Origin: a virus
Lineage: Duplodnaviria > Heunggongvirae > Uroviricota > Caudoviricetes
Length of the DNA: 22,992 bases
IMG/VR virus record: IMGVR_UViG_3300032038_000047
Coordinates: 1 to 22,992 of that record
Strand: one strand, 5' to 3'
Part shown: in pieces, positions 1,032-13,468 of the stretch
How positions within the stretch are numbered: the stretch's first letter is position 1
Layout: each line of letters starts with the position of its first letter
Made by a program: the position numbers and the translations under genes
Notes under the pieces: model-generated
What the model was told of the DNA's origin: nothing
Databases searched by the model: none
What the model saw: only the letters and a program-made list of their open reading frames with translations

Positions 1032-1036
1032 AGACA

Positions 1037-1441
1037 ATGGAAAACAGCTTGACCTCGATCCTGACTTCCGTTAAGAAGCTGCTCGGGATCACAGAGGATT
1101 ACACGCCCTTCGATACAGACATTACAATTCATATCAACTCTGCGCTGGCTGTCCTGGAACAGATGGGTGTTGGTCAGCCTGGTTTTGCCATTACCGGTGA
1201 TACGGAGACGTGGGGTGACTTTCTAGGAGATGCATCGGATCGGACACCAAACCTGGAGATGATCAAGAGCTATGTCTATATGCGGGTTAAACTCATCTTC
1301 GATCCTCCGACCAGCGGAACTGTAGTTGAGGCCTATAACAATGCTATTGCTGAGTTCGAGTGGAGAGCCCATGTGGCGGTGGAGACGCCGTATCTTGGCG
1401 GAACTGCCCCGAAGATCGTGGCGGATGTGTATGATGTGTAA
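1037..1441 (+). CDS. Probable head-tail connector-like virion protein
   Basis: GGAGG RBS before ATG 1037; helical 134-aa protein (SILTSVKKLLG...FDTDITIHINS...KLIFDPP) typical of phage head modules. Confidence 0.5.
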   Translation: MENSLTSILTSVKKLLGITEDYTPFDTDITIHINSALAVLEQMGVGQPGFAITGDTETWGDFLGDASDRTPNLEMIKSYVYMRVKLIFDPPTSGTVVEAYNNAIAEFEWRAHVAVETPYLGGTAPKIVADVYDV

Positions 1442-1445
1442 AGGT

Positions 1446-1456
1446 AATTCAAAATG
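1446..1456 (+). repeat. AATTCAAAATG motif, copy 1
   Basis: Exact 11-mer overlapping the ATG of the 1454 gene. Confidence 0.85.
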
Positions 1457-2035
1457 ATTCTTTTTACAGAAGAGTTTCTTGCACACTATGGGGTACCCGG
1501 AATGAAATGGGGCATCCGACGCTATCAGCCCTACTCAATTCATCCTCGAAAAAGCGGAAAGAGCGGAATTGAATATGGAGAGGCCGTACGACGCGGCAAA
1601 ACTACAGTTGATCGATTGCTCGGCAGTAGTGACTATTCAAGAGAAGAAAAACGTGATATACTGCTAAAAGACGTACCGAAACAGTTTGTATCGGCTGAAG
1701 AAAGCGAACGTGTTATTAGCAACACAGGCGTAGATGCTAACGATGTCTTTCAAAAAGCATTAGAAGGTCGTCGGCATGCAGGTGTTTACAAGGACGCACT
1801 GGAGAAGACTCAAAAGCAGTTAGAAAGCTCGATTGGATCTCGCTTATATCAAGTTCAGGAGCATGATATAAAGATTGCACATCCTGCCGAGTTCGATGAT
1901 GACTGGGGAGTAAAGGATGACCGTGGGCAAGCTGGACTTCTTCACAAATGGGAAAAAGATCGTATACGAAACGCTGAACAAGCATCAATAGAACTTACAG
2001 TATGGAAAGAGAGATTTGGTCATGGTAACAATTAA
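1454..2035 (+). CDS. Leader-family protein 1, candidate toxin C-terminus
   Basis: Leader MILFTEEFLAHYGVPGMKWG; distinct C-terminal domain (RHAG...EHDIKIAHP...GLLHKWEKD..RN); overlaps a small acidic downstream gene. Confidence 0.85.
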   Translation: MILFTEEFLAHYGVPGMKWGIRRYQPYSIHPRKSGKSGIEYGEAVRRGKTTVDRLLGSSDYSREEKRDILLKDVPKQFVSAEESERVISNTGVDANDVFQKALEGRRHAGVYKDALEKTQKQLESSIGSRLYQVQEHDIKIAHPAEFDDDWGVKDDRGQAGLLHKWEKDRIRNAEQASIELTVWKERFGHGNN

Positions 2036-2228
2036 TACTTTGCAAGAAATAGTTGAGAACATTGTGGAACTGGCGGATGAGTTAAAAGCACAAGAGTCGC
2101 TGAGCGATATGGATTATGGCCAACTTCTTGCTTACGCTGAAAGCCTTACTATCATCAAAGACATGTGTGATGAAGATGAGCAAGAAGCAGTAGGCTTAGA
2201 TTTCGATATAGACGCCAGGTACCTATAG
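2022..2228 (+). CDS. Small acidic protein, candidate immunity for 1454..2035
   Basis: 68 aa, strongly acidic, start overlaps the upstream gene by 14 nt, purine-rich RBS. Confidence 0.7.
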   Translation: MVTINTLQEIVENIVELADELKAQESLSDMDYGQLLAYAESLTIIKDMCDEDEQEAVGLDFDIDARYL

Positions 2229-2230
2229 CT

Positions 2231-2257
2231 CCGCAATTTTAACAGCCTGTATAATGG
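2231..2257 (+). promoter_or_regulatory. CCGCAA-N4-(T/A)ACA(A/G)C-N3-TATAAT promoter-like motif, copy 1
   Basis: CCGCAA TTTT AACAGC CTG TATAAT GG; same spacing in five copies. Confidence 0.7.
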
Positions 2258-2293
2258 AAGTCTATTCCAATACTTTGTGAAAGGACGAGAATT

Positions 2294-2641
2294 ATGCAGG
2301 ACTATATTGACATGAAGGAGCTCAAGAAGGCGAAGCGCAGAGCTCGTATTCGGGAGACTACTCAGGCGGTGGCTGCCTGGATTGATCGGAATCGTGACAT
2401 TGCGATGGCGCTGGTCCCGACTGTGATTGGTGTTGGAGGTGGAGCAGTTAAGCTCGCCAAAAAGCACCATACCATCAGTCAGGAGCGGCATCTGAAGGAA
2501 GATTACGTGTATGATCGATCCCTTGGCAAATACCTGAAGCCGACGAGGAAACTCTCGAAGAAGGAGTGGCGCGACGTTGCCCGGCGGAAGGCCAATGGCG
2601 AGAAGTATGTAAACATTTTCGACGACATGGGAGTATTATAG
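2294..2641 (+). CDS. Hypothetical basic protein with one hydrophobic segment
   Basis: AAGGA RBS; 115 aa; hydrophobic IAMALVPTVIGVGGGAV; flanked by promoter motif and terminator. Confidence 0.8.
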   Translation: MQDYIDMKELKKAKRRARIRETTQAVAAWIDRNRDIAMALVPTVIGVGGGAVKLAKKHHTISQERHLKEDYVYDRSLGKYLKPTRKLSKKEWRDVARRKANGEKYVNIFDDMGVL

Positions 2642-2651
2642 ACAGAACTTT

Positions 2652-2681
2652 AGGGGCCGCGTTTGCAGCCCCTTAGTTTTT
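2652..2681. terminator. Hairpin terminator between convergent genes
   Basis: AGGGGC..GC/GC..GCCCCT stem followed by TAGTTTTT. Confidence 0.65.
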
Positions 2682-2898
2682 AGATGTAGTTTCTCAGCCA
2701 GTCCGGCATGTTTGGATCGTCGATGCTCCAGGATTCAACTTCATTTTCATACTCATGCCAAGAGCTCTCGTCTCCATCAAAGTACTTTTGCCGGCTGCAT
2801 TTGTATTTGGTGACTGTGTTGCCTTCCAAACGGTACTCATTCCAGTAATAGCTTTTACCATAGCCTTTCCATTCATTGGTTGTATAGATTGTACTCAT
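2680..2898 (-). CDS. Small aromatic/acidic hypothetical protein (reverse strand)
   Basis: AAAGGA RBS upstream of ATG at 2898 ([12 protein letters not shown]...); 72 aa with protein-like composition. Confidence 0.75.
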
Positions 2899-2934
2899 AT
2901 ATACCAGTCCTTTCTCGACGTCAAAATGGAATTT

Positions 2935-2961
2935 CCGCAAATCCTACAACCTCCATAATGG
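2935..2961 (+). promoter_or_regulatory. Promoter-like motif, copy 2
   Basis: CCGCAA ATCC TACAAC CTC CATAAT GG. Confidence 0.7.
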
Positions 2962-2972
2962 AGGTGACAGTT

Positions 2973-3152
2973 ATGAAAGGAAAAATTGCTGGTTGGATGC
3001 TGTCTAAGCTGATCCCGGCCAACGAGACATTTGAGCTGATGCTCTATCGTAAGAAGGGCGATAACAAAAAGTTCGTCGGCAGGCTGGAGCTTGACAGCAA
3101 TAACCTGAAAGAATTGATGGCTGCATCTGAGGAGGGGTCGGAGTCCGATTAA
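2973..3152 (+). CDS. Small hypothetical protein (59 aa)
   Basis: GGAGGTG RBS, ATG 2973, motif upstream and hairpin downstream. Confidence 0.7.
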   Translation: MKGKIAGWMLSKLIPANETFELMLYRKKGDNKKFVGRLELDSNNLKELMAASEEGSESD

Positions 3153-3176
3153 GGACCCCGCCTCTTTATGTTTTTT
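3129..3176 (+). terminator. Intrinsic terminator overlapping the gene end
   Basis: GAGGAGGGGTC / GACCCCGCCTC stem then TTTATGTTTTTT. Confidence 0.65.
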
Positions 3177-4293
3177 ATGCTGATAGGTCTATTAAGACAG
3201 GCTCTACTTCTGTCCGGCTAACTCCTAATTGCAGAACGAGAGGTTCAAGATTGTTGTCTGAAACATATCGTTTTAGACCAACTTCGATAAAAGCTTCTTT
3301 TTCTGCTTTTTTGTCTTTTAAGTGCCAGATCAGTTGTTTAACCACTTTCGGCATGGTACGGAGAAGTTGCGCATAGTTGAACGATGCAGGGTTTTTAGTT
3401 ACTGCTGTTTTTATGATATTTCCACCCATCAGCAAACTATCTGTAATTGTTAGCAACATTGCAAGTTTTTGTTTGCGCATCTTAGGCTCCATGTTGATGT
3501 GTTTCACGTGAAGCTCCGCAAAGAAGCAAATTCTTACAACCAGTTCAGCAATTACTCCCGGGAAGCCTTGCGCTATAAAGTGGTTCAGGTTGTACCCTTG
3601 AAAATACAGGCTTTGGATTACATCTGATACCAGCAGATCCTCTTCTCCGGGGAGTTTGAAACGAAGCAGACTTCCAAGGCTCATAAAGGGCACTGGTAAA
3701 CCCATCGGGGTTCCCGCATCGGATAATAAGTGGATTATTTCCAAGCAGAACGAACGAAGGGCTGATTCCAGAGAAAGTGGAAGACCATCGGTCATTGCTT
3801 GAGACACAATTTTGCCACTCAAGTCAATAGTGGTCATAGTCCCTTTTTGGATGTCAGCCGTTCCAAACAGCAGACCAAGTACCGGATCGTGTCCTAGTGA
3901 AACCAGCCGATGCATAAAAGGGTTTAATCCTTCTACATGAACCGCTGTTTTGAGGTTATTCGCCGCATCGAAAGGTACATGTGCTGCATTAGACAAGAAG
4001 TCAATTCGATCCTCAGTAAGTACTTTATGAATCGTTTTATTGACGAAATCCGGAATAGGTCCGGCCGACAGCCCATATCTGGTTGGATGGGGAATACCAA
4101 TGCACAATGCGTCTAATGCAATTCCCAGTCCGGCAGCCAACCCAACATAAGCTAGTTCATGTCGGTTAGGCTTTACAAGTTTTTTGAATTCCATTTCCAG
4201 TTCGTTTCGTGCACGCAACAGTTCTGGGGTTCGAGTTAAATCTACGAGTTGTTTCGTTCCCTCCTTTCGTGTAGTTCTACACATCTTCTTCAT
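3175..4293 (-). CDS. Hypothetical 372-aa moron protein with hydrophobic segments
   Basis: Long reverse-strand ORF; AAAGGAGTGG RBS favours ATG at 4293; motif HRLVSLGHDPVLG. Confidence 0.85.
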   Translation of the reverse strand: MKKMCRTTRKEGTKQLVDLTRTPELLRARNELEMEFKKLVKPNRHELAYVGLAAGLGIALDALCIGIPHPTRYGLSAGPIPDFVNKTIHKVLTEDRIDFLSNAAHVPFDAANNLKTAVHVEGLNPFMHRLVSLGHDPVLGLLFGTADIQKGTMTTIDLSGKIVSQAMTDGLPLSLESALRSFCLEIIHLLSDAGTPMGLPVPFMSLGSLLRFKLPGEEDLLVSDVIQSLYFQGYNLNHFIAQGFPGVIAELVVRICFFAELHVKHINMEPKMRKQKLAMLLTITDSLLMGGNIIKTAVTKNPASFNYAQLLRTMPKVVKQLIWHLKDKKAEKEAFIEVGLKRYVSDNNLEPLVLQLGVSRTEVEPVLIDLSA

Positions 4294-4318
4294 GAGCACC
4301 ACTCCTTTCTATGGCCTA

Positions 4319-4327
4319 ATTGTACCA
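4319..4327 (-). promoter_or_regulatory. Extended -10 promoter (TGGTACAAT) for 3175..4293
   Basis: Reverse complement reads TG-G-TACAAT about 25 nt upstream of the start; no clear -35. Confidence 0.5.
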
Positions 4328-4396
4328 AATCATTCACATATAAAACAGAGCAATCGGAGACAATTACCGTTTGTTATTTGGTCAATTGGTGTCTAC

Positions 4397-4423
4397 CCGC
4401 AAATTCTACAACTCCTATAATGG
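4397..4423 (+). promoter_or_regulatory. Promoter-like motif, copy 3
   Basis: CCGCAA ATTC TACAAC TCC TATAAT GG. Confidence 0.75.
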
Positions 4424-4457
4424 AAAGAATCAACCTAAAATTATAGGAGGTATTATC

Positions 4458-4712
4458 ATGAAAAACGTAAACGTAATGCATATTATTAAGAGCATCGTTA
4501 TGGCGATCATTTGCGGAGCGGCAGGGGTCGGCATGTTGGCAGTGGTATCGCATTTCTATTATGAGAATGCATACGCACATACTTCATGCACGGCGGACGA
4601 GCTCTGGGAAGCGATTGCTGTGGTGGTTGCGACATTGATGATGCACTTTGTGTATCGTAAGATCATGAAGGCCATCGAAAAGAAGGAATTCTTAAAGGAG
4701 ATTGGGGACTGA
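4458..4712 (+). CDS. Small two-TM membrane protein
   Basis: AGGAGG RBS, ATG 4458; two hydrophobic helices (IVMAIICGAAGVGMLAVV; AIAVVVATLMMHFVY). Confidence 0.8.
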   Translation: MKNVNVMHIIKSIVMAIICGAAGVGMLAVVSHFYYENAYAHTSCTADELWEAIAVVVATLMMHFVYRKIMKAIEKKEFLKEIGD

Positions 4713-4738
4713 ACAAGTCCCTTCTCTCTATTTTTTTT
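4704..4738 (+). terminator. Intrinsic terminator
   Basis: GGGGACT-GAACA-AGTCCCT stem then T8. Confidence 0.7.
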
Positions 4739-4765
4739 CAGCAAATTTTGCAACCTCTAGGATAG
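4739..4765 (+). promoter_or_regulatory. Promoter-like motif, copy 4 (degenerate)
   Basis: CAGCAA ATTT TGCAAC CTC TAGGAT AG. Confidence 0.55.
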
Positions 4766-4783
4766 GAAAGGAGGTGCATGATT

Positions 4784-4960
4784 ATGCTGGAAACGAAGGA
4801 AATGCGTACACCTTCTGAGGAGGTTATGGACCTGCATGGAGGGTATATTGTCGCCCGGTATACTGGGGTTACTCAGTCAATGGGAGACGAATGGATCGAC
4901 CAGACGGCCGACCTGCTTGAGAAGATTGTAAGCGCTATCTGCTGCTGGCTGGCAAGGTAG
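4784..4960 (+). CDS. Small hypothetical protein (58 aa)
   Basis: AAGGAGGTG RBS; ATG 4778 or 4784 (spacing favours 4784); terminator follows. Confidence 0.65.
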   Translation: MLETKEMRTPSEEVMDLHGGYIVARYTGVTQSMGDEWIDQTADLLEKIVSAICCWLAR

Positions 4961-4976
4961 CACCAAACATAAACCG

Positions 4977-5009
4977 GCAAAGGGCTATTACAGCTCTTTG
5001 CTTTTTCTT
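4977..5009 (+). terminator. Intrinsic terminator
   Basis: GCAAAGGGCT-ATTAC-AGCTCTTTGC stem then TTTTTCTT. Confidence 0.75.
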
Positions 5010-5026
5010 GAGGTGAGTTAACTACA

Positions 5027-5527
5027 ATGCTTATTTTTTCAGAGGAATACCTCATGCATCATGGCATCCAAGGCCAGAAGTGGGGTGTTCGTAGGTATCA
5101 GAATTACGATGGGACTAGAACGGACACCGGAGCCAAGAGATATAGAAAGAAAGAAGCGCGTTCGTATACCAAGCAACTGAATAAAAATGATCAAAGTATA
5201 GCTACCAACATTGGTGTGCAGTACTATACTCCAGATATAGTGAACTACAATAAAAAACGGTATATCAAACAGTATGCTAACGGTAACGATAAGAAAGCGG
5301 AAAAGTATAAAACCAAAATGGAAAAGGCTCAAAATGAACTCACGACAAGCAGAGAACAAATTGAAGAAGCTAAAAGGATTGCAGTAAAGTTGGTAAAAGA
5401 AGCAGAATCAAAAGGCTATACTGTGAAAAAAACGGAAATAAGTAGGTTCATGTACAGTGATGGTAATTATAGCTATTACATGAGAGGAACGCATTATAAA
5501 GTTAAAGACATTCCTAACGTGTCATAA
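5027..5527 (+). CDS. Leader-family protein 2, basic coiled-coil C-terminus
   Basis: Leader MLIFSEEYLMHHGIQGQKWGVRRYQNYDG; GAGGTG RBS; Lys-rich. Confidence 0.85.
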   Translation: MLIFSEEYLMHHGIQGQKWGVRRYQNYDGTRTDTGAKRYRKKEARSYTKQLNKNDQSIATNIGVQYYTPDIVNYNKKRYIKQYANGNDKKAEKYKTKMEKAQNELTTSREQIEEAKRIAVKLVKEAESKGYTVKKTEISRFMYSDGNYSYYMRGTHYKVKDIPNVS

Positions 5528-5546
5528 ATAGGGGGATATACCATAC

Positions 5547-6383
5547 ATGCTTTATTATTCAGAAGATTCCCTTGTGCATCATGGTGTTCAAGGGATGAAG
5601 TGGGGCATACGGAACGGCCCTCCCTATCCACTGACTGCTTCGTCTCATGGTGCAACACAAACACGTAATTCGGGAGAAAAAGCAGCACATAGAGTGTTAG
5701 ACAAGACCGAACATGATGGGCTATTAGCCGCTACTGCAATATATTTGGCACCTTACGTTGCGATGGGGGCTGTTGTTGCGGCGGCAGTGGTTGCCGATGC
5801 CGCACATGAAGCAAAAAGGAAAAAATCTATTTCAAAGAGCCAAGGTCAAGAATTGAAACGACAGGAAGAGCAAGAGCCATTGGAGAAGAGCTTGCTTTTG
5901 GCGAACCCCACTGCTGAAACAAGAAACTGCACAAACTGTTCTATTGCGGGAGTATTAAGAATGCAGGGCTATGATGTTTCTGCTCGGACTAGAAGCGCAA
6001 AAGTCGCTGGCGGTTTTGAAGAGTTTTTAAATTCTGCGTTCCATGACGCAAACGTCAAACGGCTGTCATCTACCGATCGAGCGTCGTTTGCTAGCTCTGC
6101 GGATGTTGCGGCTCGGTACTTGAAAAAAGAGTATGGCAATAATGCGGCCGGTGTAATTGCAGTTGGATGGAAGAATTCGTCATCTGGTCATGCGTTTTCT
6201 TGGAGAATTCAAAATGGTAAAGTCGAATTTCTTGACTTCCAAAGCGGGAGAGGCGATAATGATACTCGCAGGTATTGGCCACGGATCTCAACTGACAAGA
6301 GCATATTCTTTGCTCGATTAGATGATAAATCCCCGAACCTGGATACCATTTATGAGGTAATTCAGAACGGCATCAAGGTGTAA
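5547..6383 (+). CDS. Leader-family protein 3, papain-fold (Tox-PL-like) toxin
   Basis: Leader MLYYSEDSLVHHGVQGMKWG; hydrophobic helix; C-terminal NCTNC (C128/C131), GHAF (H215) and DFQ (D230) catalytic-type motifs. Confidence 0.8.
   Translation: MLYYSEDSLVHHGVQGMKWGIRNGPPYPLTASSHGATQTRNSGEKAAHRVLDKTEHDGLLAATAIYLAPYVAMGAVVAAAVVADAAHEAKRKKSISKSQGQELKRQEEQEPLEKSLLLANPTAETRNCTNCSIAGVLRMQGYDVSARTRSAKVAGGFEEFLNSAFHDANVKRLSSTDRASFASSADVAARYLKKEYGNNAAGVIAVGWKNSSSGHAFSWRIQNGKVEFLDFQSGRGDNDTRRYWPRISTDKSIFFARLDDKSPNLDTIYEVIQNGIKV
6206..6217 (+). repeat. AATTCAAAATGG motif, copy 2 (intragenic)
   Basis: Exact match inside the papain-fold gene. Confidence 0.6.
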
Positions 6384-6396
6384 AGGAGCGACAGCA

Positions 6397-6639
6397 ATGG
6401 CTAAGAAGTATGACGTAAAAGACTTGTCCCGTCAGAAAATAGAGAGCGTTTCTTATTTATATGGGTTTTACTATGTTGTGCTGGTGCCAGACGAATTCTA
6501 TGTAAATGAAGCATGGAAAGTCGACGAGCACACCGGTAAAACAGAACCAATGTTCTATACGGACTATCTTGTTGACATTGAAGACAAAGCCCGCCCAATC
6601 GACGTCAAAGTCTTCAAGCAATGGGCTAGTAAGTTCTGA
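6397..6639 (+). CDS. Candidate immunity protein for the papain-fold toxin
   Basis: AAAGGAG RBS, 13 nt after the toxin stop; 80 aa; YYVV...WKVDEHTGK resembles the VD-x2-TG strand motif of PepSY/Imm35-like inhibitors. Confidence 0.65.
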   Translation: MAKKYDVKDLSRQKIESVSYLYGFYYVVLVPDEFYVNEAWKVDEHTGKTEPMFYTDYLVDIEDKARPIDVKVFKQWASKF

Positions 6640-6668
6640 TTGCAATCCAAATGGTGGCATTGTATAAT
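6640..6668 (+). promoter_or_regulatory. Housekeeping sigma promoter
   Basis: TTGCAA-17 nt-TATAAT. Confidence 0.8.
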
Positions 6669-6693
6669 CGACTCTGTAAGGAGAGTGATCGCA

Positions 6694-7161
6694 ATGCCCA
6701 GGAAGTCTACAAAAGAGAACAAGAACATATACCAGATTTGCAGGGAGAATAAAGGCCTCACTCGGGAGGCAGCGGCTGAGCTTCTCGAAACTATGGATGA
6801 GAACCGCATCAAACGAATTGAAGGTGGCGCAGCACCACGTCCGGATGAGATTTTGCGTATGGCCGACAAATACTGTGCACCGCTTCTATGCAATCACTAC
6901 TGTGTAAATAACTGCGAACTTGGAGAGTCTCAGGTTCACGAGATTACACAGAAGAATCTGCAGCAGATCACCTTGGAAATGATCCATGCAATCAACGAAC
7001 TGTCTGCTGAGAAAGACCGGCTGATAGCAATCGCTGTGGATGGAAAAGTCACAGAGGATGAGCTGCCGGACTTTAAAAGGCTGCGAAAACAGCTGGACGC
7101 AATGGCGTCCATTATTGGATCCCTTCAATTATGGGTCGACGAAAACATGCAAAGCACATAA
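6694..7161 (+). CDS. XRE-family HTH regulator with Cys-containing linker and helical C-terminus
   Basis: RENKGLTREAAAELL...IKRIEGG HTH pattern; AAGGAG RBS, ATG 6694. Confidence 0.8.
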   Translation: MPRKSTKENKNIYQICRENKGLTREAAAELLETMDENRIKRIEGGAAPRPDEILRMADKYCAPLLCNHYCVNNCELGESQVHEITQKNLQQITLEMIHAINELSAEKDRLIAIAVDGKVTEDELPDFKRLRKQLDAMASIIGSLQLWVDENMQST

Positions 7162-7175
7162 TCGACAACAAATGA

Positions 7176-7213
7176 ACCGTGCGCTTTACCCAGGCGTGCG
7201 GTTTCTTTTTTTT
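7176..7213 (+). terminator. Intrinsic terminator
   Basis: ACCGTGCGC / GCGTGCGGT stem (two GU pairs) then TTCTTTTTTTT. Confidence 0.7.
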
Positions 7214-7235
7214 GTGTCAGGGAGGTTAACATAAC

Positions 7236-7751
7236 ATGGAACTTCTGAATGAAGACTATCTCGCCCACCATGGCATCCTTGGGATGAAGTGGGGCGTTCG
7301 CAGGTATCAGAATGAGGATGGTACCTACACTTCTCTCGGAAAGATGAGAGAACGCGAGGAGTATAATGGCGACAGTGACGGAGAAAAAAAGAAAGATAAG
7401 GAACCGCCAAGTAAGAAAGCGTGGACAGCCGTGAGTGATTCCTTTCGAGCTGCTGCTGGTATCCCTGGGAAAGCGCATTCTGCAAATAAAGCAAAACGGC
7501 TTGGTAAAGAAGATATGAGTAAAATGTCTGACGAGGAACTCTTCGCTCGTACACAGCGCCTTACGCTTGAGCGTAATTACATGAACGCCCTGAGCCAGGC
7601 CGATGTTTCCTACGGAGCACAGCGGGCGCAGCAGGTGCTTGAGATCGCTGGAAGTTTGGCATCTATTGCCGCTGGCATCTCAAGTGCGAGCTATAACTTT
7701 AGTCAGGCCAGAGCGCTTAACGCTCAGACAAATTTGCTGACCGGATCGTAA
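7236..7751 (+). CDS. Leader-family protein 4, immediately upstream of terL
   Basis: Leader MELLNEDYLAHHGILGMKWGVRRYQNEDG; GGAGG RBS; KMSDEEL..R..RL.LE..Y segment and amphipathic C-terminus. Confidence 0.85.
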   Translation: MELLNEDYLAHHGILGMKWGVRRYQNEDGTYTSLGKMREREEYNGDSDGEKKKDKEPPSKKAWTAVSDSFRAAAGIPGKAHSANKAKRLGKEDMSKMSDEELFARTQRLTLERNYMNALSQADVSYGAQRAQQVLEIAGSLASIAAGISSASYNFSQARALNAQTNLLTGS

Positions 7752-7755
7752 GTCT

Positions 7756-9504
7756 ATGGCTCTCTCCAACACAGCAACGCCGAGGTATTATGCGCAGTTT
7801 CGTGATGCGGTGCTCCGGAATGAAATCCTGGTAAATCAGGAAGTCTCCATGGAGATGAACCGGATCGACGCACTGATCGCAGATCCCCGGTATTATTACG
7901 ACGATGAAGCGGTCGAGGGCTGGGTTCGTTATTGCGAGAATGAGCTCACCCTGACAGACGGAGCGGACCTCCATCTTCTTGACAGCTTCAAGCTGTGGGG
8001 AGAGGAGATATTCGGCTGGTATGAATTTGTCGACCGCAGCGTGTTTGTCCCAAGTCCCAATGGCCATGGGCACTATGTAAAGAAACGGGTCAAACAGCGG
8101 CTCACCAAGAAGCAGTATCTGATCGTGGCCAGAGGCGCTGCCAAGAGCATGTATGGAAGCTGCATTCAGAACTATTATTTGAACGTAGACACCACAACCA
8201 CTCATCAGATTACGACTGCCCCAACAATGAAGCAGGCGGATGAAATCCTCTCCCCGATTCGGACGTCCATAACCCGTGCCAGAGGGCCGCTGTTCAAATT
8301 CCTAACGGAGGGGTCGCTGCAGAACACCACTGGCTCCAAGGCAAACCGGGTCAAACTCAGCTCCACCAAAAAAGGCATCGAAAACTTCCTAACCGGCAGT
8401 CTGCTGGAGATCCGGCCCATGAGCATTGACAAGCTGCAGGGTCTCCGGTGTAAGATTGCAACCATAGACGAATGGCTGTCTGGCGACACCAGAGAAGACG
8501 TGGTCGGCGCCATCGAGCAGGGCGCAGCCAAAGGTGGTTTGGATGACTATCTGATCATCGCCATGAGTTCTGAGGGCACCGTCCGAAACGGCGTCGGTGA
8601 CACAATCAAAATGGAACTGATGAGCATCCTGAAGGGCGAGTATTGGGCGCCGCACATCTCGATCTGGTATTATCGACTGGATGACGTAAAGGAGGTTGCC
8701 GACCCCTCTACTTGGATCAAGGCGAATCCGAACCTCGGCAAGACAGTAACTTACGAAGCTTATCAGAAGGACGTAGAAAGAGCCGAAAGCAACCCGGCAG
8801 TCCGCAATGATGTGCTGGCTAAGCGGTTCGGCATCCCGACAGAGGGCTATACATATTTCTTTACTTACGAAGAAACGCTGGTCCATCGGAAGCGCTCCTT
8901 CTGGTCCATGCCATGCGCTATGGGCGTGGATCTCAGCCAGGGCGATGACTTCTGCGCATTTACCTTCCTCTTCCCTCTGCGGGCAGGCAGCTTCGGCGTT
9001 AAGGTCCGGAGCTATATTTCTTCCAGAACACTGTTCAAACTGCCAGGAGCTATGCGGGTCAAATACAACGAGTTTATTGACGAAGGAAGCCTTGTGGTCC
9101 TTGATTGCACGGTTCTCGACATGACGGATGTGTATGATGACCTGGATACATTCATTCAGGAAAGCGAGTATGACGTCCGGGCCCTCGGCTTTGACCCATA
9201 CAACGCAAAGGAATTCATAGAGCGCTGGTCTAACGAGAACGGTCCCTATGGCATTGAGAAAGTCATACAGGGCGTAAAGACAGAGTCGGTACCTCTTGGT
9301 GAGCTGAAGAAGCTTGCCGAGGACCGGCTCTTAATCTTTGACCAGAGTCTAATGCAGTACTGCATGGGCAACTGTATTACGATGGAGGACACTAACGGTA
9401 ATCGGAAACTGCTCAAGCGGCGGTATGACCAGAAGATCGATAACGTGTCCGCTTTGATGGACGCCTGGGTGGCTTATAAGGCCAATAAGGATGAGTTTGA
9501 GTAA
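7756..9504 (+). CDS. terL: Terminase large subunit
   Basis: Walker A-like IVARGAAKS, Walker B IATIDEW, motif III-like IAMSSEG, nuclease GVDLSQGDD and KIDNVSALMDA. Confidence 0.95.
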   Translation: MALSNTATPRYYAQFRDAVLRNEILVNQEVSMEMNRIDALIADPRYYYDDEAVEGWVRYCENELTLTDGADLHLLDSFKLWGEEIFGWYEFVDRSVFVPSPNGHGHYVKKRVKQRLTKKQYLIVARGAAKSMYGSCIQNYYLNVDTTTTHQITTAPTMKQADEILSPIRTSITRARGPLFKFLTEGSLQNTTGSKANRVKLSSTKKGIENFLTGSLLEIRPMSIDKLQGLRCKIATIDEWLSGDTREDVVGAIEQGAAKGGLDDYLIIAMSSEGTVRNGVGDTIKMELMSILKGEYWAPHISIWYYRLDDVKEVADPSTWIKANPNLGKTVTYEAYQKDVERAESNPAVRNDVLAKRFGIPTEGYTYFFTYEETLVHRKRSFWSMPCAMGVDLSQGDDFCAFTFLFPLRAGSFGVKVRSYISSRTLFKLPGAMRVKYNEFIDEGSLVVLDCTVLDMTDVYDDLDTFIQESEYDVRALGFDPYNAKEFIERWSNENGPYGIEKVIQGVKTESVPLGELKKLAEDRLLIFDQSLMQYCMGNCITMEDTNGNRKLLKRRYDQKIDNVSALMDAWVAYKANKDEFE

Positions 9505-9515
9505 GGTGGAAGATA

Positions 9516-10013
9516 ATGAACCTGTTATCAGAGAGTTTCCTGATTCATCATGGAATCAAAGGCCAAAAGTGGGGCGTGCGGAATGGGCCTCCGTATCCCT
9601 TGGATGATAGTCAAAATCGTAGAGCTGCCCATCATCGGAATCTGATAGAACGCGGGCGTGCATTTGTCTCATCCAATATGCACAGAATTAAGTACCGCCC
9701 CTTATCGGATATATACAACGGATTTGACGATGACGAGGACGAACTTGAAAAACTAACAATAGATGATATACTTAGTTTACCAAAGGCTCAAAGCCGATTG
9801 AAAATGTCATCTCAGACGTATGGCCATGTGATGCATGAGATTATGACCAATATTTCAAGCGAACAGCGCTTTACCGAAACCAGTTTTGTTAAGAATGTCG
9901 GCCAGTATTCATATGCAGTTTCAAATGATCTTGAAGGCGGGTTCGGCCTTATGGGTCGAGTTAAAATCAGTGAACTAATGAAACATTACGGAAATAAGAA
10001 TCGGGGTAAATAA
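9516..10013 (+). CDS. Leader-family protein 5, candidate toxin C-terminus
   Basis: Leader MNLLSESFLIHHGIKGQKWGVRNGPPYPL; C-terminal YGHVMHEIMTN...VGQYSYAVSN domain; small gene 3 nt downstream. Confidence 0.85.
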   Translation: MNLLSESFLIHHGIKGQKWGVRNGPPYPLDDSQNRRAAHHRNLIERGRAFVSSNMHRIKYRPLSDIYNGFDDDEDELEKLTIDDILSLPKAQSRLKMSSQTYGHVMHEIMTNISSEQRFTETSFVKNVGQYSYAVSNDLEGGFGLMGRVKISELMKHYGNKNRGK

Positions 10014-10016
10014 ATA

Positions 10017-10238
10017 GTGATTACAAAGCCTACACCAACTTCAGATGCGCTTTATGATGCAATTATCAAAATCAAAGACGACAATGATTTCGTTAGCTGG
10101 GTGCTTTCCTGTGCTGTGTACGAGCAGGATCAGCGGCTTCTGTTGGAATTGATACACTCTCGACCCGACATTGATTCGTCAACCATTGTCCGTGCCTGTT
10201 ATAATATAGCCCAAAAACGCGGATTGCTTGTTGAATAG
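10017..10238 (+). CDS. Candidate immunity protein for 9516..10013
   Basis: 73-aa helical protein, GTG start 3 nt after the upstream stop. Confidence 0.65.
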   Translation: MITKPTPTSDALYDAIIKIKDDNDFVSWVLSCAVYEQDQRLLLELIHSRPDIDSSTIVRACYNIAQKRGLLVE

Positions 10239-10242
10239 TCGT

Positions 10243-10269
10243 CCGCAACTTTTACAACGGCTATAATAG
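10243..10269 (+). promoter_or_regulatory. Promoter-like motif, copy 5
   Basis: CCGCAA CTTT TACAAC GGC TATAAT AG. Confidence 0.75.
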
Positions 10270-10279
10270 GAGAGAAGAT

Positions 10280-10320
10280 GAGAATGTGCCTTTTTATGGT
10301 GCATTCTCTTTCTTTTTATT
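10280..10320 (+). terminator. Intrinsic terminator directly after the promoter motif
   Basis: GAGAATGTGCC / GGTGCATTCTC stem then TTTCTTTTTATT. Confidence 0.7.
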
Positions 10321-10369
10321 TGCGACTGGTAAATTTTGCATCTTATTGCCGGGAGGTGATATTTCCATC

Positions 10370-11047
10370 ATGGATCTCTTTTCTGAAGAGTACCTTGCTC
10401 ACTATGGCGTTAAGGGAATGAAATGGGGCAAGCATCTGCCAGGCGTTTTCCCTGTGTTCGGGAACAATAGAGGTACAACGACCAATTACGCAGGAGCCTC
10501 TCGTTCCGCTGGATCTTTCCGCAGCCCGGCCAATACCGCTGGATATTCTCACGCCAGTGGAACTGTTAAACGGATAGCAGAAAAGCGTAGCGGATACACG
10601 CATACTACCGGAACAGCCCCACGCTCCGTCGAGAAGTCAATCAATCGTTCTCGTTCCAGTGGAACAGCGCCGCGCTCTATCGAAAAGTCAATCAATTATT
10701 CGCATTCCGGCGGCCATTTCAAGTCGGCGAGCGCAAGCAGGCCCTCTGGTACATCGCTTGGTGTAAGGGTAGCTTCCACTAGACCAACCACATCTGCTGC
10801 AGCCTATACTTCCCGGGTGCATTCCAGCATCTCACCAGCGCCAAAGGTGCAAGTCTATCCGCAGAAGCCTAGTGAGAAATTGACGGTATATCCACAGAAG
10901 CCGATGAAGATTTCAGATCAGACATGGGGCACTACACTTAAGAACCTGGGTTCCGCCGTTTCACAAACAGGACGCAAAGCAGCAATAAGCGTACTCAGTC
11001 TGATTCAAAATATCTCAGCAAAAGCGCTGCGTGCGCTGAACACATAG
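10370..11047 (+). CDS. Leader-family protein 6, Ser/Thr/Arg-rich low-complexity repeat protein
   Basis: GGAGGTG RBS, ATG 10370, leader MDLFSEEYLAHYGVKGMKWGK; short internal repeats. Confidence 0.85.
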   Translation: MDLFSEEYLAHYGVKGMKWGKHLPGVFPVFGNNRGTTTNYAGASRSAGSFRSPANTAGYSHASGTVKRIAEKRSGYTHTTGTAPRSVEKSINRSRSSGTAPRSIEKSINYSHSGGHFKSASASRPSGTSLGVRVASTRPTTSAAAYTSRVHSSISPAPKVQVYPQKPSEKLTVYPQKPMKISDQTWGTTLKNLGSAVSQTGRKAAISVLSLIQNISAKALRALNT

Positions 11048-11057
11048 GAGGAAAAAC

Positions 11058-11507
11058 ATGGATTTATTATCTGAAGAGTATCTTGCCCACCATGGTGTTC
11101 TTGGTCAGAAGTGGGGCGTCCGGAGATACCAGAATGCAGACGGGTCTTATACGGAAGCCGGAAAAGGTCGGTATGCTCAGAGTAGTAACAAATGGCTTTC
11201 TCGAAAAGTGAATGCGTCTAAAGAAGACCGTCAAGCCCATGGTAAAGAATTGGTTAGCAAGGGCAAAACCAGTGTAGGCGCTATAGGCAGAGCGGTTGTA
11301 CGGCATTATGTTGCCGGCGCTGCTACCGGCGCAGGCGTTTGGGGTGCGCTTGGTGTTGCTGCCGTTGTTGCCGCTCCCGCAGTCACGATTGGAGCCGCTG
11401 CCGCGGCTGCTGTTATGGTTGGTGCGGGAGCTACGTATCAGGTTAGCTCTGCCGTCCGTGGCTATCAGGAAGTAAGCGACATTCAGCAGTATCGCAATTC
11501 AAAATGA
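11058..11507 (+). CDS. Leader-family protein 7 with Gly/Ala-rich hydrophobic hairpin
   Basis: AGGAGG RBS; leader MDLLSEEYLAHHGVLGQKWGVRRYQNADG; about 40-aa G/A/V-rich segment. Confidence 0.85.
   Translation: MDLLSEEYLAHHGVLGQKWGVRRYQNADGSYTEAGKGRYAQSSNKWLSRKVNASKEDRQAHGKELVSKGKTSVGAIGRAVVRHYVAGAATGAGVWGALGVAAVVAAPAVTIGAAAAAAVMVGAGATYQVSSAVRGYQEVSDIQQYRNSK
11496..11506 (+). repeat. AATTCAAAATG motif, copy 3
   Basis: Exact match overlapping the stop of 11058..11507 and the RBS of the next gene. Confidence 0.85.
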
Positions 11508-11517
11508 GGTGACGTTT

Positions 11518-12159
11518 TTGGACCTATTCTCTGAAGAGTATCTTGCCCACTATGGCGTTAAAGGCATGAAATGGGGCAAGAACATTATGGCGAAAGCCGG
11601 TGATTTCCTTACTGGGGATCAATACAAAAAAAACGCTGACAACTATCAGCAGAAAGCCAACGCTTTTCAAAAGCAGGCTGCAAGTTATAGATACGCCGAA
11701 AGAACCAGCACCGCCGAACGGCGTCAGAATACACAGCGTGCTGCACGGGCTATTAGACAAGCGCAAGGTTATCAGCAATTAGCAAGTTCAAACAGCAAGA
11801 AATACAACAATCCTGTAAGAAAAACAATTCGTAATATTTCTTCAACCGCTAATTCAGTACAGAAAAAAGCGGGGAATCTTATTACTGGGAGCCAATACAA
11901 AAAGCAAGCCGCAAGTAATCAGCAAAAGGCGAACTACTATCGTAACCAAGTTGCTGAGCTTAGTTCTGCAGAAAACGCCAATGCTACCGATCGTCGCCAG
12001 AATACTCAAAAAGCATCGCGGGCAGCGAAGCAAGCCCAAGGTTATCAGTATCTGGCCGATAAAGCAATAAAAAATTATCAGACGAAGTCTGTTGCTGGTA
12101 TTGCCACGAGTACCGTAAACAAAGGCCTGGATTTCATCAAAAATCTATTCGGCAATTGA
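11518..12159 (+). CDS. Leader-family protein 8 with 63-aa tandem duplication
   Basis: TTG at 11518, 6 nt after GAGGTG, gives MDLFSEEYLAHYGVKGMKWGK, identical to the 10370 leader. Confidence 0.85.
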   Translation: MDLFSEEYLAHYGVKGMKWGKNIMAKAGDFLTGDQYKKNADNYQQKANAFQKQAASYRYAERTSTAERRQNTQRAARAIRQAQGYQQLASSNSKKYNNPVRKTIRNISSTANSVQKKAGNLITGSQYKKQAASNQQKANYYRNQVAELSSAENANATDRRQNTQKASRAAKQAQGYQYLADKAIKNYQTKSVAGIATSTVNKGLDFIKNLFGN

Positions 12160-12174: not shown

Positions 12175-13449
12175 ATGCCACCACTTACAACACGGCTGAG
12201 GCATGCCTGGAATGCCTTCACCAATAACAAAGATCCCACTTACAATCCTGACTGGATGGGGTACAGTAGTTCTCTCCGTCCAGATCGGGTGCGATATTCT
12301 CGTGGGAATGAGCGGTCCATCATTACAGCAGTGTACACACGCATTGCTATTGATGTGGCCGCTGTTTCTATTCAACACGTTCGACTGGACGAGAACGGCA
12401 GCTTCCTTGAGACAATCAACAGTCCGCTAAACGACTGCCTGAATGTGGAGGCAAATGTCGACCAGACTGGCCGGGCCTTCATTCAGGATCTCGTCGAGAG
12501 TATGTTCGATGAGGGCTGTGTAGCGATCGTCCCAACGGACTGTTCGGCCAATCCCTTGCTCACCAGCTCCTATGATATTTTGTCGATGCGGGTCGGCAAG
12601 ATCACGCAGTGGGGCCCATCCTGGGTACGGGTCCGGCTCTACAATGAGCGCACCGGTCAGCAGGAAGAGGTCACGCTCGCCAAGCAGCAGGTGGCTATCA
12701 TTCCGAACCCGCTATACTCGGTGATGAATGAGCCTAACTCTACCTTCCAGCGGCTGATCCGTAAGCTGAACCTGTTGGATACCATTGACGAACAATCTTC
12801 CTCCGGGAAGCTGGACCTGATCATTCAGCTCCCGTATACGATCAAGACAGAGGCCAGACGGCAGCAGGCAGAACAGCGCCGGAAAGACATTGAGATGCAG
12901 CTGGCCGGGACTAAGTACGGAATCGCCTACACAGATGGTACGGAGCGTATTACCCAGCTCAATCGCTCTGTTGAGAATAACCTGATGAGTCAGATCGAAT
13001 ACCTGACGAGCATGCTATACAGCCAGTTGGGATTGACGACCTCGATCTTTGACGGAACAGCAGACGAGAAGACCATGCTGAATTATTATAGCCGCACCAT
13101 CGAGCCGATCCTCTCCGCCATTGTGGATGAGATGGTTCGGAAGTTCCTGACCAAAACCGCCAGAACCCAGGGGCAGAGCATCATGTTCTTCCGGGATCAG
13201 TTCAAGTTGGTTCCTGTTGGCCAGGTGGCTGAGATTGCTCAGACACTGGTCAGCACAGAGATCGCCACTCCTAACGAGATGCGTGCGGTGATTGGATGGA
13301 AACCAGTGAACGACGCCCGGGCCGATTCATTGATGAACCGAAACATCAATACAGTCCCGGAAGAGGGACAGGAGGAAGTGCCCGTCGAGGAAGATTACGC
13401 CGAATACCCGGAAGAAGTATACTCCGAGGAAGAATACCCTGAAGAATAA
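12175..13449 (+). CDS. Portal protein
   Basis: 424 aa between terL and protease; AAGGAGG RBS; IAIDVA..., GKLDLIIQLP, TPNEMRAVIG portal-type segments; acidic EEYPEE tail. Confidence 0.92.
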   Translation: MPPLTTRLRHAWNAFTNNKDPTYNPDWMGYSSSLRPDRVRYSRGNERSIITAVYTRIAIDVAAVSIQHVRLDENGSFLETINSPLNDCLNVEANVDQTGRAFIQDLVESMFDEGCVAIVPTDCSANPLLTSSYDILSMRVGKITQWGPSWVRVRLYNERTGQQEEVTLAKQQVAIIPNPLYSVMNEPNSTFQRLIRKLNLLDTIDEQSSSGKLDLIIQLPYTIKTEARRQQAEQRRKDIEMQLAGTKYGIAYTDGTERITQLNRSVENNLMSQIEYLTSMLYSQLGLTTSIFDGTADEKTMLNYYSRTIEPILSAIVDEMVRKFLTKTARTQGQSIMFFRDQFKLVPVGQVAEIAQTLVSTEIATPNEMRAVIGWKPVNDARADSLMNRNINTVPEEGQEEVPVEEDYAEYPEEVYSEEEYPEE

Positions 13450-13456
13450 AGGAGCA

Positions 13457-13468
13457 AATTCAAAATGG
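13457..13468 (+). repeat. AATTCAAAATGG motif, copy 4
   Basis: Exact match overlapping the ATG of the protease-capsid gene. Confidence 0.85.

Follow-up and report, generated by a model that had tools for sequence, protein, structure and literature searches.

Why should eight genes around the large terminase (TerL) and portal genes of one phage begin with the same 20-aa leader and continue into unrelated proteins? A preliminary description of this locus suggested a virion-loading tag on members of a polymorphic toxin system. The window, i.e., the whole stretch of 22,992 nucleotides analyzed here, is part of the 86,992-nt record of an 87-kb phage that infects gut bacteria.

Eight genes with one leader peptide

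1016..1441, +, head-tail connector gene (Pfam PF24829, Phage_connect_2; E 1.8e-35)
1454..2035, +, leader protein 1, 193 aa; DUF7211 leader, near-neutral-pI payload without a recognized fold, ending ...FGHGNN
2022..2228, +, small acidic ORF, 68 aa, pI 4.1, overlapping the 3' end of 1454-2035
5027..5527, +, leader protein 2, 166 aa; extended RRYQN-type leader, basic lysine-rich payload, pI 9.7
5547..6383, +, leader protein 3, 278 aa; NGPPYPL-type leader, papain-fold glutamine-deamidase toxin domain
6397..6639, +, immunity-like small gene, 80 aa, pI 5.3, 13 nt behind the toxin gene
7236..7751, +, leader protein 4, 171 aa, conserved core member directly upstream of TerL
7756..9504, +, large terminase (Pfam TerL_nuclease, E 8e-36, and TerL_ATPase)
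9516..10013, +, leader protein 5, 165 aa; NGPPYPL-type leader, payload without assignment
10017..10238, +, small acidic ORF, 73 aa, pI 4.9, GTG start, 3 nt behind the stop of 9516-10013
10370..11047, +, leader protein 6, 225 aa; payload very basic (pI 11.4) and rich in Ser/Thr/Arg
11058..11507, +, leader protein 7, 149 aa; basic payload in which residues ∼95-125 form a long hydrophobic stretch of Ala/Gly/Val
11518..12159, +, leader protein 8, 213 aa, initiated at TTG; payload basic (pI 10.3), rich in Gln/Ala/Lys and containing an internal repeat
12175..13449, +, portal protein (Pfam Phage_portal, E 1.2e-19)
13465..15519, +, fusion of S78 prohead protease, scaffold-like linker and HK97-type capsid protein (Pfam Peptidase_S78, Phage_capsid)
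82826-85555 of the record, outside the window, two-barrel RNA polymerase with a variant leader

Translation of the eight ORFs within 1454-12159 reproduced the N-termini first quoted, and alignment bore out the invariance of E6, L9, H11, G13, G16, K18, W19 and G20, with no indels in the first 23 residues. All eight leaders exceed the curated cutoff (E 7e-11 to 3e-7) of Pfam DUF7211 (PF23847), a 25-position family labeled as function unknown, and a literature search found no paper mentioning the name or the accession. To that entry, this analysis adds genomic context, polyproteins, a junction motif and a toxin pairing. These are real genes. Each is preceded by a Shine-Dalgarno-like sequence, and seven start with ATG; the TTG of 11518 lies 6-7 nt past the Shine-Dalgarno sequence GAGGTG, which overlaps the stop codon of the gene before it. 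Searching the complete record in six frames returned the same eight copies and no others at E<=10. ReqiPepy6 has eight copies as well, so such an arrangement is not unique.

Codons at the conserved leader residues are identical in only 10-70% of cases, so the leaders are not recent copies, and they are maintained on unrelated bodies at the protein level, by purifying selection. The DUF7211 consensus, an acidic stretch followed by [YF]-L-x-H-[HY]-G-[VI]-x-G-[MQ]-K-W-G-[VI]-R-R, is a short linear peptide with low predicted order. It is extended by RRYQN.DG.YT..GK.RY in 5027, 7236 and 11058, which also match one PHROG beyond the leader, and by NGPPYPL in 5547 and 9516. In blastp comparisons beyond residue 22, only short leader extensions matched, and similarity was absent past about residue 50; the bodies are thus unrelated from there on, as first described, but not in the extensions before it.

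The reported flanking of terL and portal also stood: four leader genes lie between TerL and portal, one abuts TerL, two are 1.4-2.7 kb upstream of TerL and one directly follows the connector gene, as in Lactococcus phage 1706 (orf6-orf7) and Gordonia phage Capybara (gp11-gp12). Coupled small ORFs follow three of them (1454, 14-nt overlap; 5547, 13-nt gap; 9516, 3-nt gap), including, as noted earlier, both NGPPYPL-type genes.

Payloads and coupled small genes

The product of 5547-6383 matches Pfam Gln_amidase (E 1.2e-8), and its alignment to Shigella OspI (3b21), with the NC..C, H and FLD.Q.G motifs retained, indicates an OspI-like deamidase with an intact Cys/His/Asp catalytic triad; hydropathy puts residues ∼65-90 in a hydrophobic helix. 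Behind 22 of 24 homologous toxin genes, an ORF of 60-98 aa starts -35 to +45 nt from the stop. The tabulation of downstream genes proposed in the preliminary description found a small ORF directly behind 18 of 19 toxin genes, compared with 49 of 379 other leader genes. Remote homologues of the 6397..6639 product sit behind toxins at three loci (L146, L130 and L143). From these sequence comparisons, the 5547 and 6397 products are most likely a toxin and an immunity-like antidote. The ORF at 10017..10238 is a possible partner of the 9516-10013 product, and no homologues of it were found; those of 2022..2228 were absent from 154 related loci.

A polymorphic toxin system is recognizable for 5547-6383, whose relatives nearly always have a small gene behind them, but not for the other seven payloads, and the view that payloads are generally toxins fails, as almost none of 83 payload clusters scanned had a known toxin domain. 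The leader profile, searched as originally suggested, matched 39,578 cluster representatives, and 221 payloads gave 91 clusters, of which 76 were singletons, beside one core cluster in 69 loci. Relatives place different bodies at the same gene positions. Recognizable payload domains (Gln deamidase, GNAT and sigma r3/r4) are of the kinds expected of delivered effectors, and in actinophage records, genes bearing the motif are annotated as phosphoesterase/RNA ligase and as peptidase. The majority of payloads have no recognizable function, and several are of low complexity.

The core cluster contradicts the claim that all payloads vary. In alignment, 7236 consists of the leader, a basic linker, an MSDEEL..RL.LE..Y helix and a hydrophobic helix rich in Gly/Ala/Ser. 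The cluster to which its payload belongs numbers 86 members and is present in 69 of 84 phage loci, and the same unit occurs in 1706 orf7 and Capybara gp12; judged by this distribution, the 7236 payload is a conserved core component, not variable cargo.

The leader proteins could instead be fast-diverging duplicates of the core gene in which only the N-terminal motif (e.g., a metal- or nucleic-acid-binding loop) is still recognizable and the unrelatedness of the payloads is illusory. The region and PHROG shared by 5027, 7236 and 11058 fit this idea, as do the many low-complexity payloads, but the same peptide is joined to unrelated folds (deamidase, GNAT, sigma-like, phosphoesterase and polymerase), and this, with the different bodies at the same positions and the singletons, makes common descent of the bodies quite improbable.

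Head module, polyproteins and a putative protease motif

DUF7211 accompanies one head module (TerL, portal, connector and protease-capsid fusion) in every sample. Of 84 phage loci, 76 had TerL, 68 portal, 66 connector and 57 the protease-capsid fusion; 77 of the leader genes were <3 kb upstream of TerL and 74 were between TerL and portal. Bacterial genomes had the same TerL in 49 of 50 leader-bearing loci of at least 12 kb, and genus counts among cultured phages were nearly equal for the leader and for TerL/portal DNA. One locus (L099) has two leader genes and no head module within 20 kb. The module is that of the known Actinobacteria/Firmicutes supercluster (Lactococcus 1706, ReqiPepy6, FP_oengus and Gordonia DJ phages), and the motif tracks it rather than the host. 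Because portal, protease, scaffold linker and capsid shell all travel together, co-occurrence cannot separate them as partners of the leader.

Such company would also suit a head-assembly or packaging accessory motif, with helpers (e.g., terminase/portal regulators, a small-terminase substitute or scaffold helpers) docking on the packaging machinery and acting in the producer only, without injection. Leader genes hug TerL and portal, the conserved member occupies the small-terminase position, a small terminase is not recognizable in the window, and one polyprotein matches the Phage_terminase small-subunit family. We consider this rather unlikely, since it leaves unexplained the eight different bodies, the toxin and immunity-like pairs, the GNAT and sigma domains, and the polymerase leader and phage 1706 labels described below.

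The leader is not strictly N-terminal, as had been supposed. Internal and repeated copies are common in relatives, many of which fuse 2-5 leader-payload units into polyproteins, and one logo fits internal and N-terminal copies. Unit junctions bear [LIF]-x-H-[SAG], which precedes 120 of 308 internal leaders by 6-25 residues (∼3 expected from the background rate), exceeds local shuffles (122 observed, 15 ± 4 shuffled) and is present also in phage loci and Capybara gp12. Similarly, the linker of the protease-capsid fusion has four conserved [LIM]-x-H-[GSA] sites (H134, H157, H329 and H352; across 54 homologues, His in 87-100%, L/I/M at -2 and G/S/A at +1) and is otherwise variable around them. 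Payload bodies are not depleted of the motif (81 observed versus 56 expected). T4 gp21 cuts at L/I-x-E and herpesvirus assemblin at V/L/I-x-A|S, and the hydrophobic-x-His pattern parallels these sites. On this pattern, [LIF]-x-H-[SAG] is probably the cut site of the head protease, and the four linker sites are putative maturation cuts. The T4 capsid-targeting sequence (CTS) ends in a protease site. The leader's own L-x-H precedes H/Y/F, not S/A/G, and therefore the leader may escape cutting; if so, its strongly conserved G..G.KWG.R half needs an explanation other than cleavage.

About 20 homologues of the RNA polymerase start with (D/E)x[LI]xHYG...SGRYPWGSG, a variant that hhalign relates to the leaders (probability 88%, E 2.9e-6) and that matches DUF7211 over half only. 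In phage 1706, the depositors labeled orf7 (two motifs) and orf75 (the polymerase with the variant leader) “structural protein,” and the same record marks inferred functions as “putative.” The proposed cargo probably includes the phage's own polymerase. A YonO-like polymerase has been described for this supercluster, without mention of the motif (bioRxiv 10.1101/842583). Like virion-packaged N4 vRNAP and crAss-like gp66, it is a phage-encoded noncanonical RNA polymerase with a DxDGD loop; its gene adjoins the head module and its product is labeled structural in 1706, but its packaging, unlike that of N4 vRNAP, is putative.

These results bear on two further explanations. A host-directed motif would bring late-expressed modules to a host machine or membrane component of the producing cell (e.g., ribosome, RNA polymerase, divisome, cell-wall synthesis or export route). 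Membrane-type helices in several payloads, the short linear form and low predicted order of the motif, and a toxin requiring an antidote in the same cell agree with this. Nevertheless, the motif follows the head module across actinobacterial and firmicute hosts, repeated internal copies with protease-type junctions fit in-head processing, and both 1706 motif-bearing proteins are labeled structural, so that host targeting seems improbable. Alternatively, the peptide could anchor variable domains outside the head or neck as a capsid/connector decoration, which the constant anchor, variable body, head-module location and 1706 label would allow. The cytoplasmic-type deamidase with its antidote, the RNA polymerase, the very basic low-complexity proteins and the protease-type junctions all suggest the interior, the Pfam-scanned payload clusters had no match to adhesion or Ig-like families, and decoration is very unlikely.

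A candidate capsid-targeting tag

The virion-loading tag of the preliminary description remains the best-supported reading, if indirectly, through head-module linkage, the 1706 labels and the junction motif: with a probability of roughly 0.6, DUF7211 is a T4-like capsid-targeting tag whose cargo is loaded into the head and delivered to the next host. Packaging, cleavage, ejection and the binding of the tag to a head component are what we infer from these patterns. Membrane-helix proteins are unusual capsid contents and count against a tag.

In T4, internal proteins that otherwise differ widely are brought into the scaffolding core by a conserved CTS (PMC3012670). The CTS of IPI-III and Alt, removed by gp21 (PMC3012670), resembles DUF7211 in being a peptide of ∼10-20 residues on a diverse, fast-changing set of unrelated, often basic or enzymatic proteins, with a hydrophobic-x-P1 triplet resembling the inferred site of the head protease (L-x-H here, L/I-x-E in T4). 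Delivery with DNA would be a common role. The two peptides have no sequence similarity. Unlike the CTS, DUF7211 has a second strongly conserved half (G..G.KWG.R) and internal and tandem copies, and its carriers are siphophages of Gram-positive hosts with the protease fused to the capsid protein, whereas T4-type phages are myophages with a separate scaffold core.

The proposed likeness to the MuF polymorphic toxins of temperate phages (Jamet et al. 2017, PMC5576092) is one of arrangement: phage-encoded proteins in a packaging module beside portal/terminase, with a constant N-terminus, variable C-terminal toxins, a small ORF behind toxin-bearing members and abundance in gut Firmicutes. A MuF domain is absent. 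The constant part is a peptide of 20-25 residues rather than a portal-binding domain of roughly 250, several copies occur per genome rather than one, and most payloads are not recognizable toxins.

We propose that DUF7211 would be an intrinsically floppy address peptide, used by one large siphophage lineage (the 1706/ReqiPepy6/FP_oengus/actinophage “supercluster”) to mark proteins for procapsid entry. Within the procapsid, cleavage of [L/I/F]-x-H before S/A/G by the protease domain that each capsid subunit carries would free the capsid domain from the scaffold and, in polyprotein relatives, separate fused leader-payload units. The cargo of this phage would comprise 7236 as the conserved core protein, one glutamine-deamidase toxin, neutralized in the producer by the product of the small gene directly behind it, four very basic proteins that probably associate with DNA, and two or three whose helices are of the membrane type; the two-barrel RNA polymerase of the phage may join them through its variant leader. 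This cargo would exit with the DNA and act in the newly infected cell.

The head module and its eight leaders

CheckV rated the IMG/VR phage record of 86,992 nt complete; the window covers its first 22,992 nt. The leader genes are interspersed among its head genes.

Head-module features of the window, in gene order
600-1031, plus strand: HNH endonuclease (window annotation)
1016-1441, plus strand: head-tail connector gene (window annotation)
1454-2035, plus strand: leader gene 1, directly after the connector in gene order
Between the connector/leader gene 1 and the remaining head module: insertion of ∼3 kb that includes one minus-strand gene
Starts at 5027 and 5547, plus strand: leader genes 2 and 3, then a small ORF and an HTH regulator
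Start at 7236, plus strand: leader gene 4, directly upstream of TerL
7756-9504, plus strand: TerL (window annotation)
Starts at 9516, 10370, 11058, and 11518, plus strand: leader genes 5 to 8, between TerL and portal
12175-13449, plus strand: portal gene (window annotation)
13465-15519, plus strand: fused S78 protease, scaffold-like linker, and HK97-type capsid gene (window annotation)

This layout, together with a YonO-like RNA polymerase at record positions 82826-85555, places the phage in the “supercluster” of Actinobacteria and Firmicutes phages reported by Koert et al. (bioRxiv 10.1101/842583). Among the members of that group are Lactococcus 1706, Faecalibacterium FP_oengus, ReqiPepy6, and the Gordonia, Arthrobacter, and Streptomyces clusters. 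The leader goes unmentioned in that paper. The ∼3-kb insertion consists of the sole minus-strand gene of the region (3175-4302; 375 aa with hydrophobic segments) and a small membrane-type ORF on the plus strand (4371-4712). A further ORF at 2294-2641 encodes 115 aa that include a hydrophobic helix and, at the C-terminus, the motif ..Y.YDRSLG.Y...R.LS..E......K.NGE; since a similar ORF lies in a comparable position in a related locus (L149, 13650-13877), it represents a conserved small family. Neither Pfam nor PHROGs gave a match for these three genes. Among the leader genes upstream of TerL, 6640-7161 encodes a 173-aa XRE-type HTH protein that matches phrog_6499 “transcriptional regulator” (E value, 3e-39). 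No small terminase was recognizable across the whole window.

Translation of the ORFs returned all eight N-termini as quoted in the preliminary description, and alignment confirmed E6, L9, H11, G13, G16, K18, W19, and G20 as invariant, with no indels. Each leader gene is preceded by a Shine-Dalgarno sequence; the start codon at 11518 is TTG, 6 to 7 nt downstream of GAGGTG. The DUF7211 (PF23847) HMM scored the eight proteins at 30.3 to 41.8 bits, against a gathering score of 27 bits, and a six-frame search of the genome returned the same eight copies and no further copy at an E value of ≤10. Beyond about residue 50 the eight payloads have no similarity to one another, as had been claimed. The phage shares one feature with T4-type capsid-targeting systems, a short peptide common to otherwise unrelated proteins. 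The many silent differences among the leaders indicate that they are kept by selection on the peptide rather than by recent copying. Five of the eight payloads have a pI above 9 (four of them 9.7 to 11.4), and three contain hydrophobic helices; an Atlas look-up with the 9516 payload gave sub-threshold matches only. A leader of fixed length, as in a signal peptide, was considered and rejected, as the distance from start codon to His ranges from 4 to 25 residues and internal copies account for 31 of 417 motifs.

Payloads, polyproteins, and the deamidase pair

The 221 payloads of the phage sample described below fall into 91 blastp clusters, of which 76 are singletons. A single cluster, represented by 86 members across 69 loci, is conserved and includes 7236-7751, directly upstream of TerL. 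Four elements make up its alignment: leader, basic linker, a helix with MSDEEL..RL.LE..Y, and a hydrophobic helix rich in Gly, Ala, and Ser. The same core unit occurs inside orf7 of Lactococcus phage 1706 and gp12 of Gordonia phage Capybara. In actinophages it is fused behind a ∼340-aa N-terminal domain, as in Capybara gp12 (L009:2386-3951) and ReqiPepy6 gp013 (L093:4682-6277); some record annotations call this domain a phosphoesterase, RNA ligase, or hydrolase.

The motif is also more than a leader. The 150 best profile matches are long proteins with two to five motif copies each; the first copy is N-terminal in 134, and successive copies have a median spacing of 220 residues, the size of one stand-alone leader protein. 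Internal and N-terminal copies give one logo: an acidic stretch, then the invariant His, preceded by Leu (position −2) and an aromatic residue (position −3). This shared spacing and logo indicate that relatives toggle between separate genes and polyproteins of the same units.

The preliminary description proposed a polymorphic toxin system with downstream immunity genes. A constant N-terminus and variable bodies were indeed found, while recognizable Pfam domains in the 83 payload-cluster representatives were confined to GNAT (three) and papain-fold glutamine deamidase (Gln_amidase; one). The polyproteins repeat these two families (GNAT in 5 and deamidase in 2 of 56) and add sigma-70 regions 3/4 in one. 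MuF polymorphic toxins differ in having an N-terminal MuF domain: the 26 translated ORFs in or beside the window (18 of them window proteins) gave no Pfam match to PF04233/PF06152 and relatives.

The proposal finds its support in the deamidase class. The 5547-6383 product matches PF15644 (papain-fold glutamine deamidase) above the cut-off (E value, 1.2e-8), and alignment to Shigella OspI (3b21) retains NC..C, H, and FLD.Q.G, and with them the catalytic Cys, His, and Asp; its predicted domain is thus of the OspI-like papain-fold glutamine deamidase toxin type. Among 24 homologous genes for leader-deamidase proteins, 22 are followed by an ORF of 60 to 98 aa that starts −35 to +45 nt from the stop codon. 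The ORFs in this position are diverse (ten clusters), and the pairing is specific to the class (18/19, versus 49/379 for other leader genes). MuF toxins are recognized by this polymorphic-toxin signature, the pairing of a toxin with a downstream small gene (PMC5576092). The immunity-gene claim is supported for the deamidase class only. No homologues were found for the small ORFs behind 1454 and 9516, and Pfam and PHROGs returned nothing for any of the three small ORFs downstream of leader genes. The leader subtype extended by NGPPYPL makes up ∼10% of leaders and is carried by 12 of 19 toxins and also by other payloads.

Distribution of the motif and the polymerase variant

A search with a leader profile, suggested earlier as a check, was run, and payloads and downstream genes were tabulated for matches across phage and bacterial genomes. 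Among 1.84 billion representatives of 50% identity clusters, the profile of the eight leaders matched 39,578 at an E value of ≤1e-3. When the leader region of the toxin protein was used in a word-indexed homologue search, just three proteins were returned, too few for a domain table.

The phage sample comprised 84 loci (80 from IMG/VR, three cultured phages, and this genome) and contained 222 motifs, mostly two to seven per locus; for 202 of them a start codon lies within six codons of profile position 1. Close homologues of TerL were found in 76 of the 84 loci, of the portal in 68, of the connector in 66, and of the protease-capsid fusion in 57, counts that are limited by locus length. Of the leader genes, 77 are located upstream of TerL at a distance of less than 3 kb, and 74 are located between TerL and the portal. 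A second sample, of 74 loci from bacterial genomes, came mostly from gut Clostridia, and isolates with the motif include Clostridium leptum DSM 753, Blautia faecis, and Lachnospira hominis; 49 of the 50 bacterial loci of ≥12 kb carry the same TerL. Cultured phages with the motif number 233 records, in which TerL/portal DNA and the leader have nearly equal per-genus counts (Arthrobacter, 95; Gordonia, 55; Streptomyces, 54; Lactococcus, 8 to 9; Curtobacterium, 7). With four motif proteins in Capybara, at least three in Streptomyces phage ClubPenguin, and eight in ReqiPepy6, the eight-copy arrangement is at the upper end of the range and not unique. Co-occurrence fails as a pointer to a binding partner, because TerL, portal, connector, and protease-capsid fusion travel together.

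Two loci depart from this pattern. One (L145) is a decayed prophage. The other, Lachnospiraceae MAG contig CAMVKW010000013.1 (L099; 20 kb), has two DUF7211 leader genes and no homologue of TerL, portal, or capsid within its 20 kb, and is the only sampled locus in which the tag stands apart from the head module.

A variant of the leader is found on a candidate RNA polymerase encoded outside the window (record positions 82826-85555, equivalent to L011:7827-10556), ∼4.4 kb upstream of the window start on a circular map. This 909-aa two-barrel (YonO/crAss-like) protein contains a GADFDGD loop, carries HTH domains at either end, and begins ...DDQLAHYGTPRHSGRYPWGSG, a half-matching leader variant. 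About 20 polymerase homologues share (D/E)x[LI]xHYG, an insert of 0 to 7 residues, and SGRYPWGSGxNPxQ. Profile-profile comparison of polymerase N-termini with the leaders gave a probability of 88% (E value, 2.9e-6) over the first half. In 27 phage loci and 34 genome loci, no more than 10 kb separates the polymerase gene from the leader genes.

In the depositors' record of phage 1706 (EU081845.1), functions that were inferred carry the word “putative,” but a number of scattered ORFs have the unqualified label “structural protein.” These ORFs include orf7, with two DUF7211 motifs, and orf75, a 1,029-aa polymerase homologue with the N-terminus ...SLQHYGTKRHSGRYPWGSG. The labels, which are indirect evidence for tagged proteins within the capsid, reportedly derive from SDS-PAGE and LC-MS/MS of virions by Garneau et al. 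in 2008 (Virology). The Arthrobacter phage paper contains no mass spectrometry.

A hydrophobic-x-His motif and a proposed loading mechanism

The linker of the protease-capsid fusion is variable and acidic except for four [L/I/M]-x-H-[G/S/A] sites, in which His is 87 to 100% conserved among 54 homologues. Two (H134 and H157) lie just past the protease domain and two (H329 and H352) just ahead of the capsid domain. In polyproteins, 120 of 308 internal leaders have the same motif 6 to 25 residues upstream, against ∼3 expected at the background rate, and the junction zones contain 122 motifs, versus 15 ± 4 in composition-preserving shuffles. Examples from phage loci are KLRH|A, KIKH|S, and KLTH|S; in Capybara gp12 the site is EIVH|D, with I-V-H|D 14 residues ahead of the leader. 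T4 gp21 cleaves at L/I-x-E and herpesvirus assemblin at V/L/I-x-A|S, and the junction motif parallels both in its hydrophobic P3 and small P1′ residues. As a protease fused to the capsid would act inside the procapsid, its putative cleavage motif at cargo junctions suggests that leader proteins are inside the head, an independent, albeit inferential, argument for that location.

The leader's own L9-x-H11 fits P3 to P1 of this motif, but the next residue is H, Y, or F rather than S, A, or G. Avoidance of L-x-H-[SGA] in payloads, expected beside an active protease, was not seen (81 observed, versus 56 ± 7). Complex prediction in which the leader (A1) was paired with the whole protease-capsid fusion (A5) scored 0.00, a value without weight for or against binding.

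Two further features of the head genes were observed. The portal N-terminus (12175-12210) reads MPPLTTRLRHAWNAF, and RL.HAWNAF recurs at portal N-termini downstream of leader genes in many related loci; it fits a putative L-x-H|A site, and the portal N-terminus may be processed. In the scaffold-like linker (13960-14320), an amphipathic element (ETVKDVFD.LTE.QK.VVYFMI.QALE) occurs in two copies, surrounded by highly acidic sequence of low conservation.

We propose the following mechanism, of which the sequence-level facts alone are established. The leader peptide would address cargo to the procapsid, where the capsid-fused protease would cut at hydrophobic-x-His sites; the cargo would be delivered along with the DNA, and an antidote would neutralize the deamidase in the producing cell. 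On a bolder reading, DUF7211 may be a general, portable “load me” peptide that docks, substrate-like, on the capsid-fused protease or on the scaffold; whatever protein follows it, alone or in a string cut at L-x-H, would be packed and injected (the phage's own RNA polymerase, toxins, and host-takeover enzymes). We give this reading a probability of roughly one in three. The lineage concerned would, with similar reservation, be a very large one of phages of Gram-positive gut and soil bacteria.

The T4 capsid-targeting sequence, MKTYQEFIAE, resembles the leader by eye only in its hydrophobic-x-P1 ending, and the likeness is one of analogy, not homology. The concept is already known from that sequence and from MuF toxins. 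New here are the arrangement of DUF7211 units in polyproteins, the finding that their junctions and the capsid linker share a hydrophobic-x-His motif, the conserved core member, and the specific pairing of toxin and small gene. The preliminary description named the motif as an uncharacterized phage domain, which agrees with Pfam, where its function is listed as unknown; no paper on DUF7211, PF23847, or the motif was found in the literature.

The idea is directly testable, as many carriers are in culture and freely available (among them SEA-PHAGES Gordonia, Arthrobacter, and Streptomyces phages, ReqiPepy6, and Lactococcus 1706). If true, the “load me” reading would mean that a counterpart of the T4 capsid-targeting system evolved independently a second time, and the peptide would be ready for use in delivering proteins into Clostridia and Actinobacteria. 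Foreign proteins could be loaded into phages of Gram-positive bacteria by this simple handle. The reading would also add an inferred cleavage specificity (hydrophobic-x-His) for the capsid-fused S78 protease and a second family of phage-borne toxin/immunity pairs besides MuF toxins. One short peptide would then account for what tens of thousands of “hypothetical” phage proteins do, and it would become clear how, in a whole phage lineage whose hosts are gut Clostridia, lactococci, and soil actinobacteria, proteins enter the host along with the DNA, among them the phage's own RNA polymerase and toxins.
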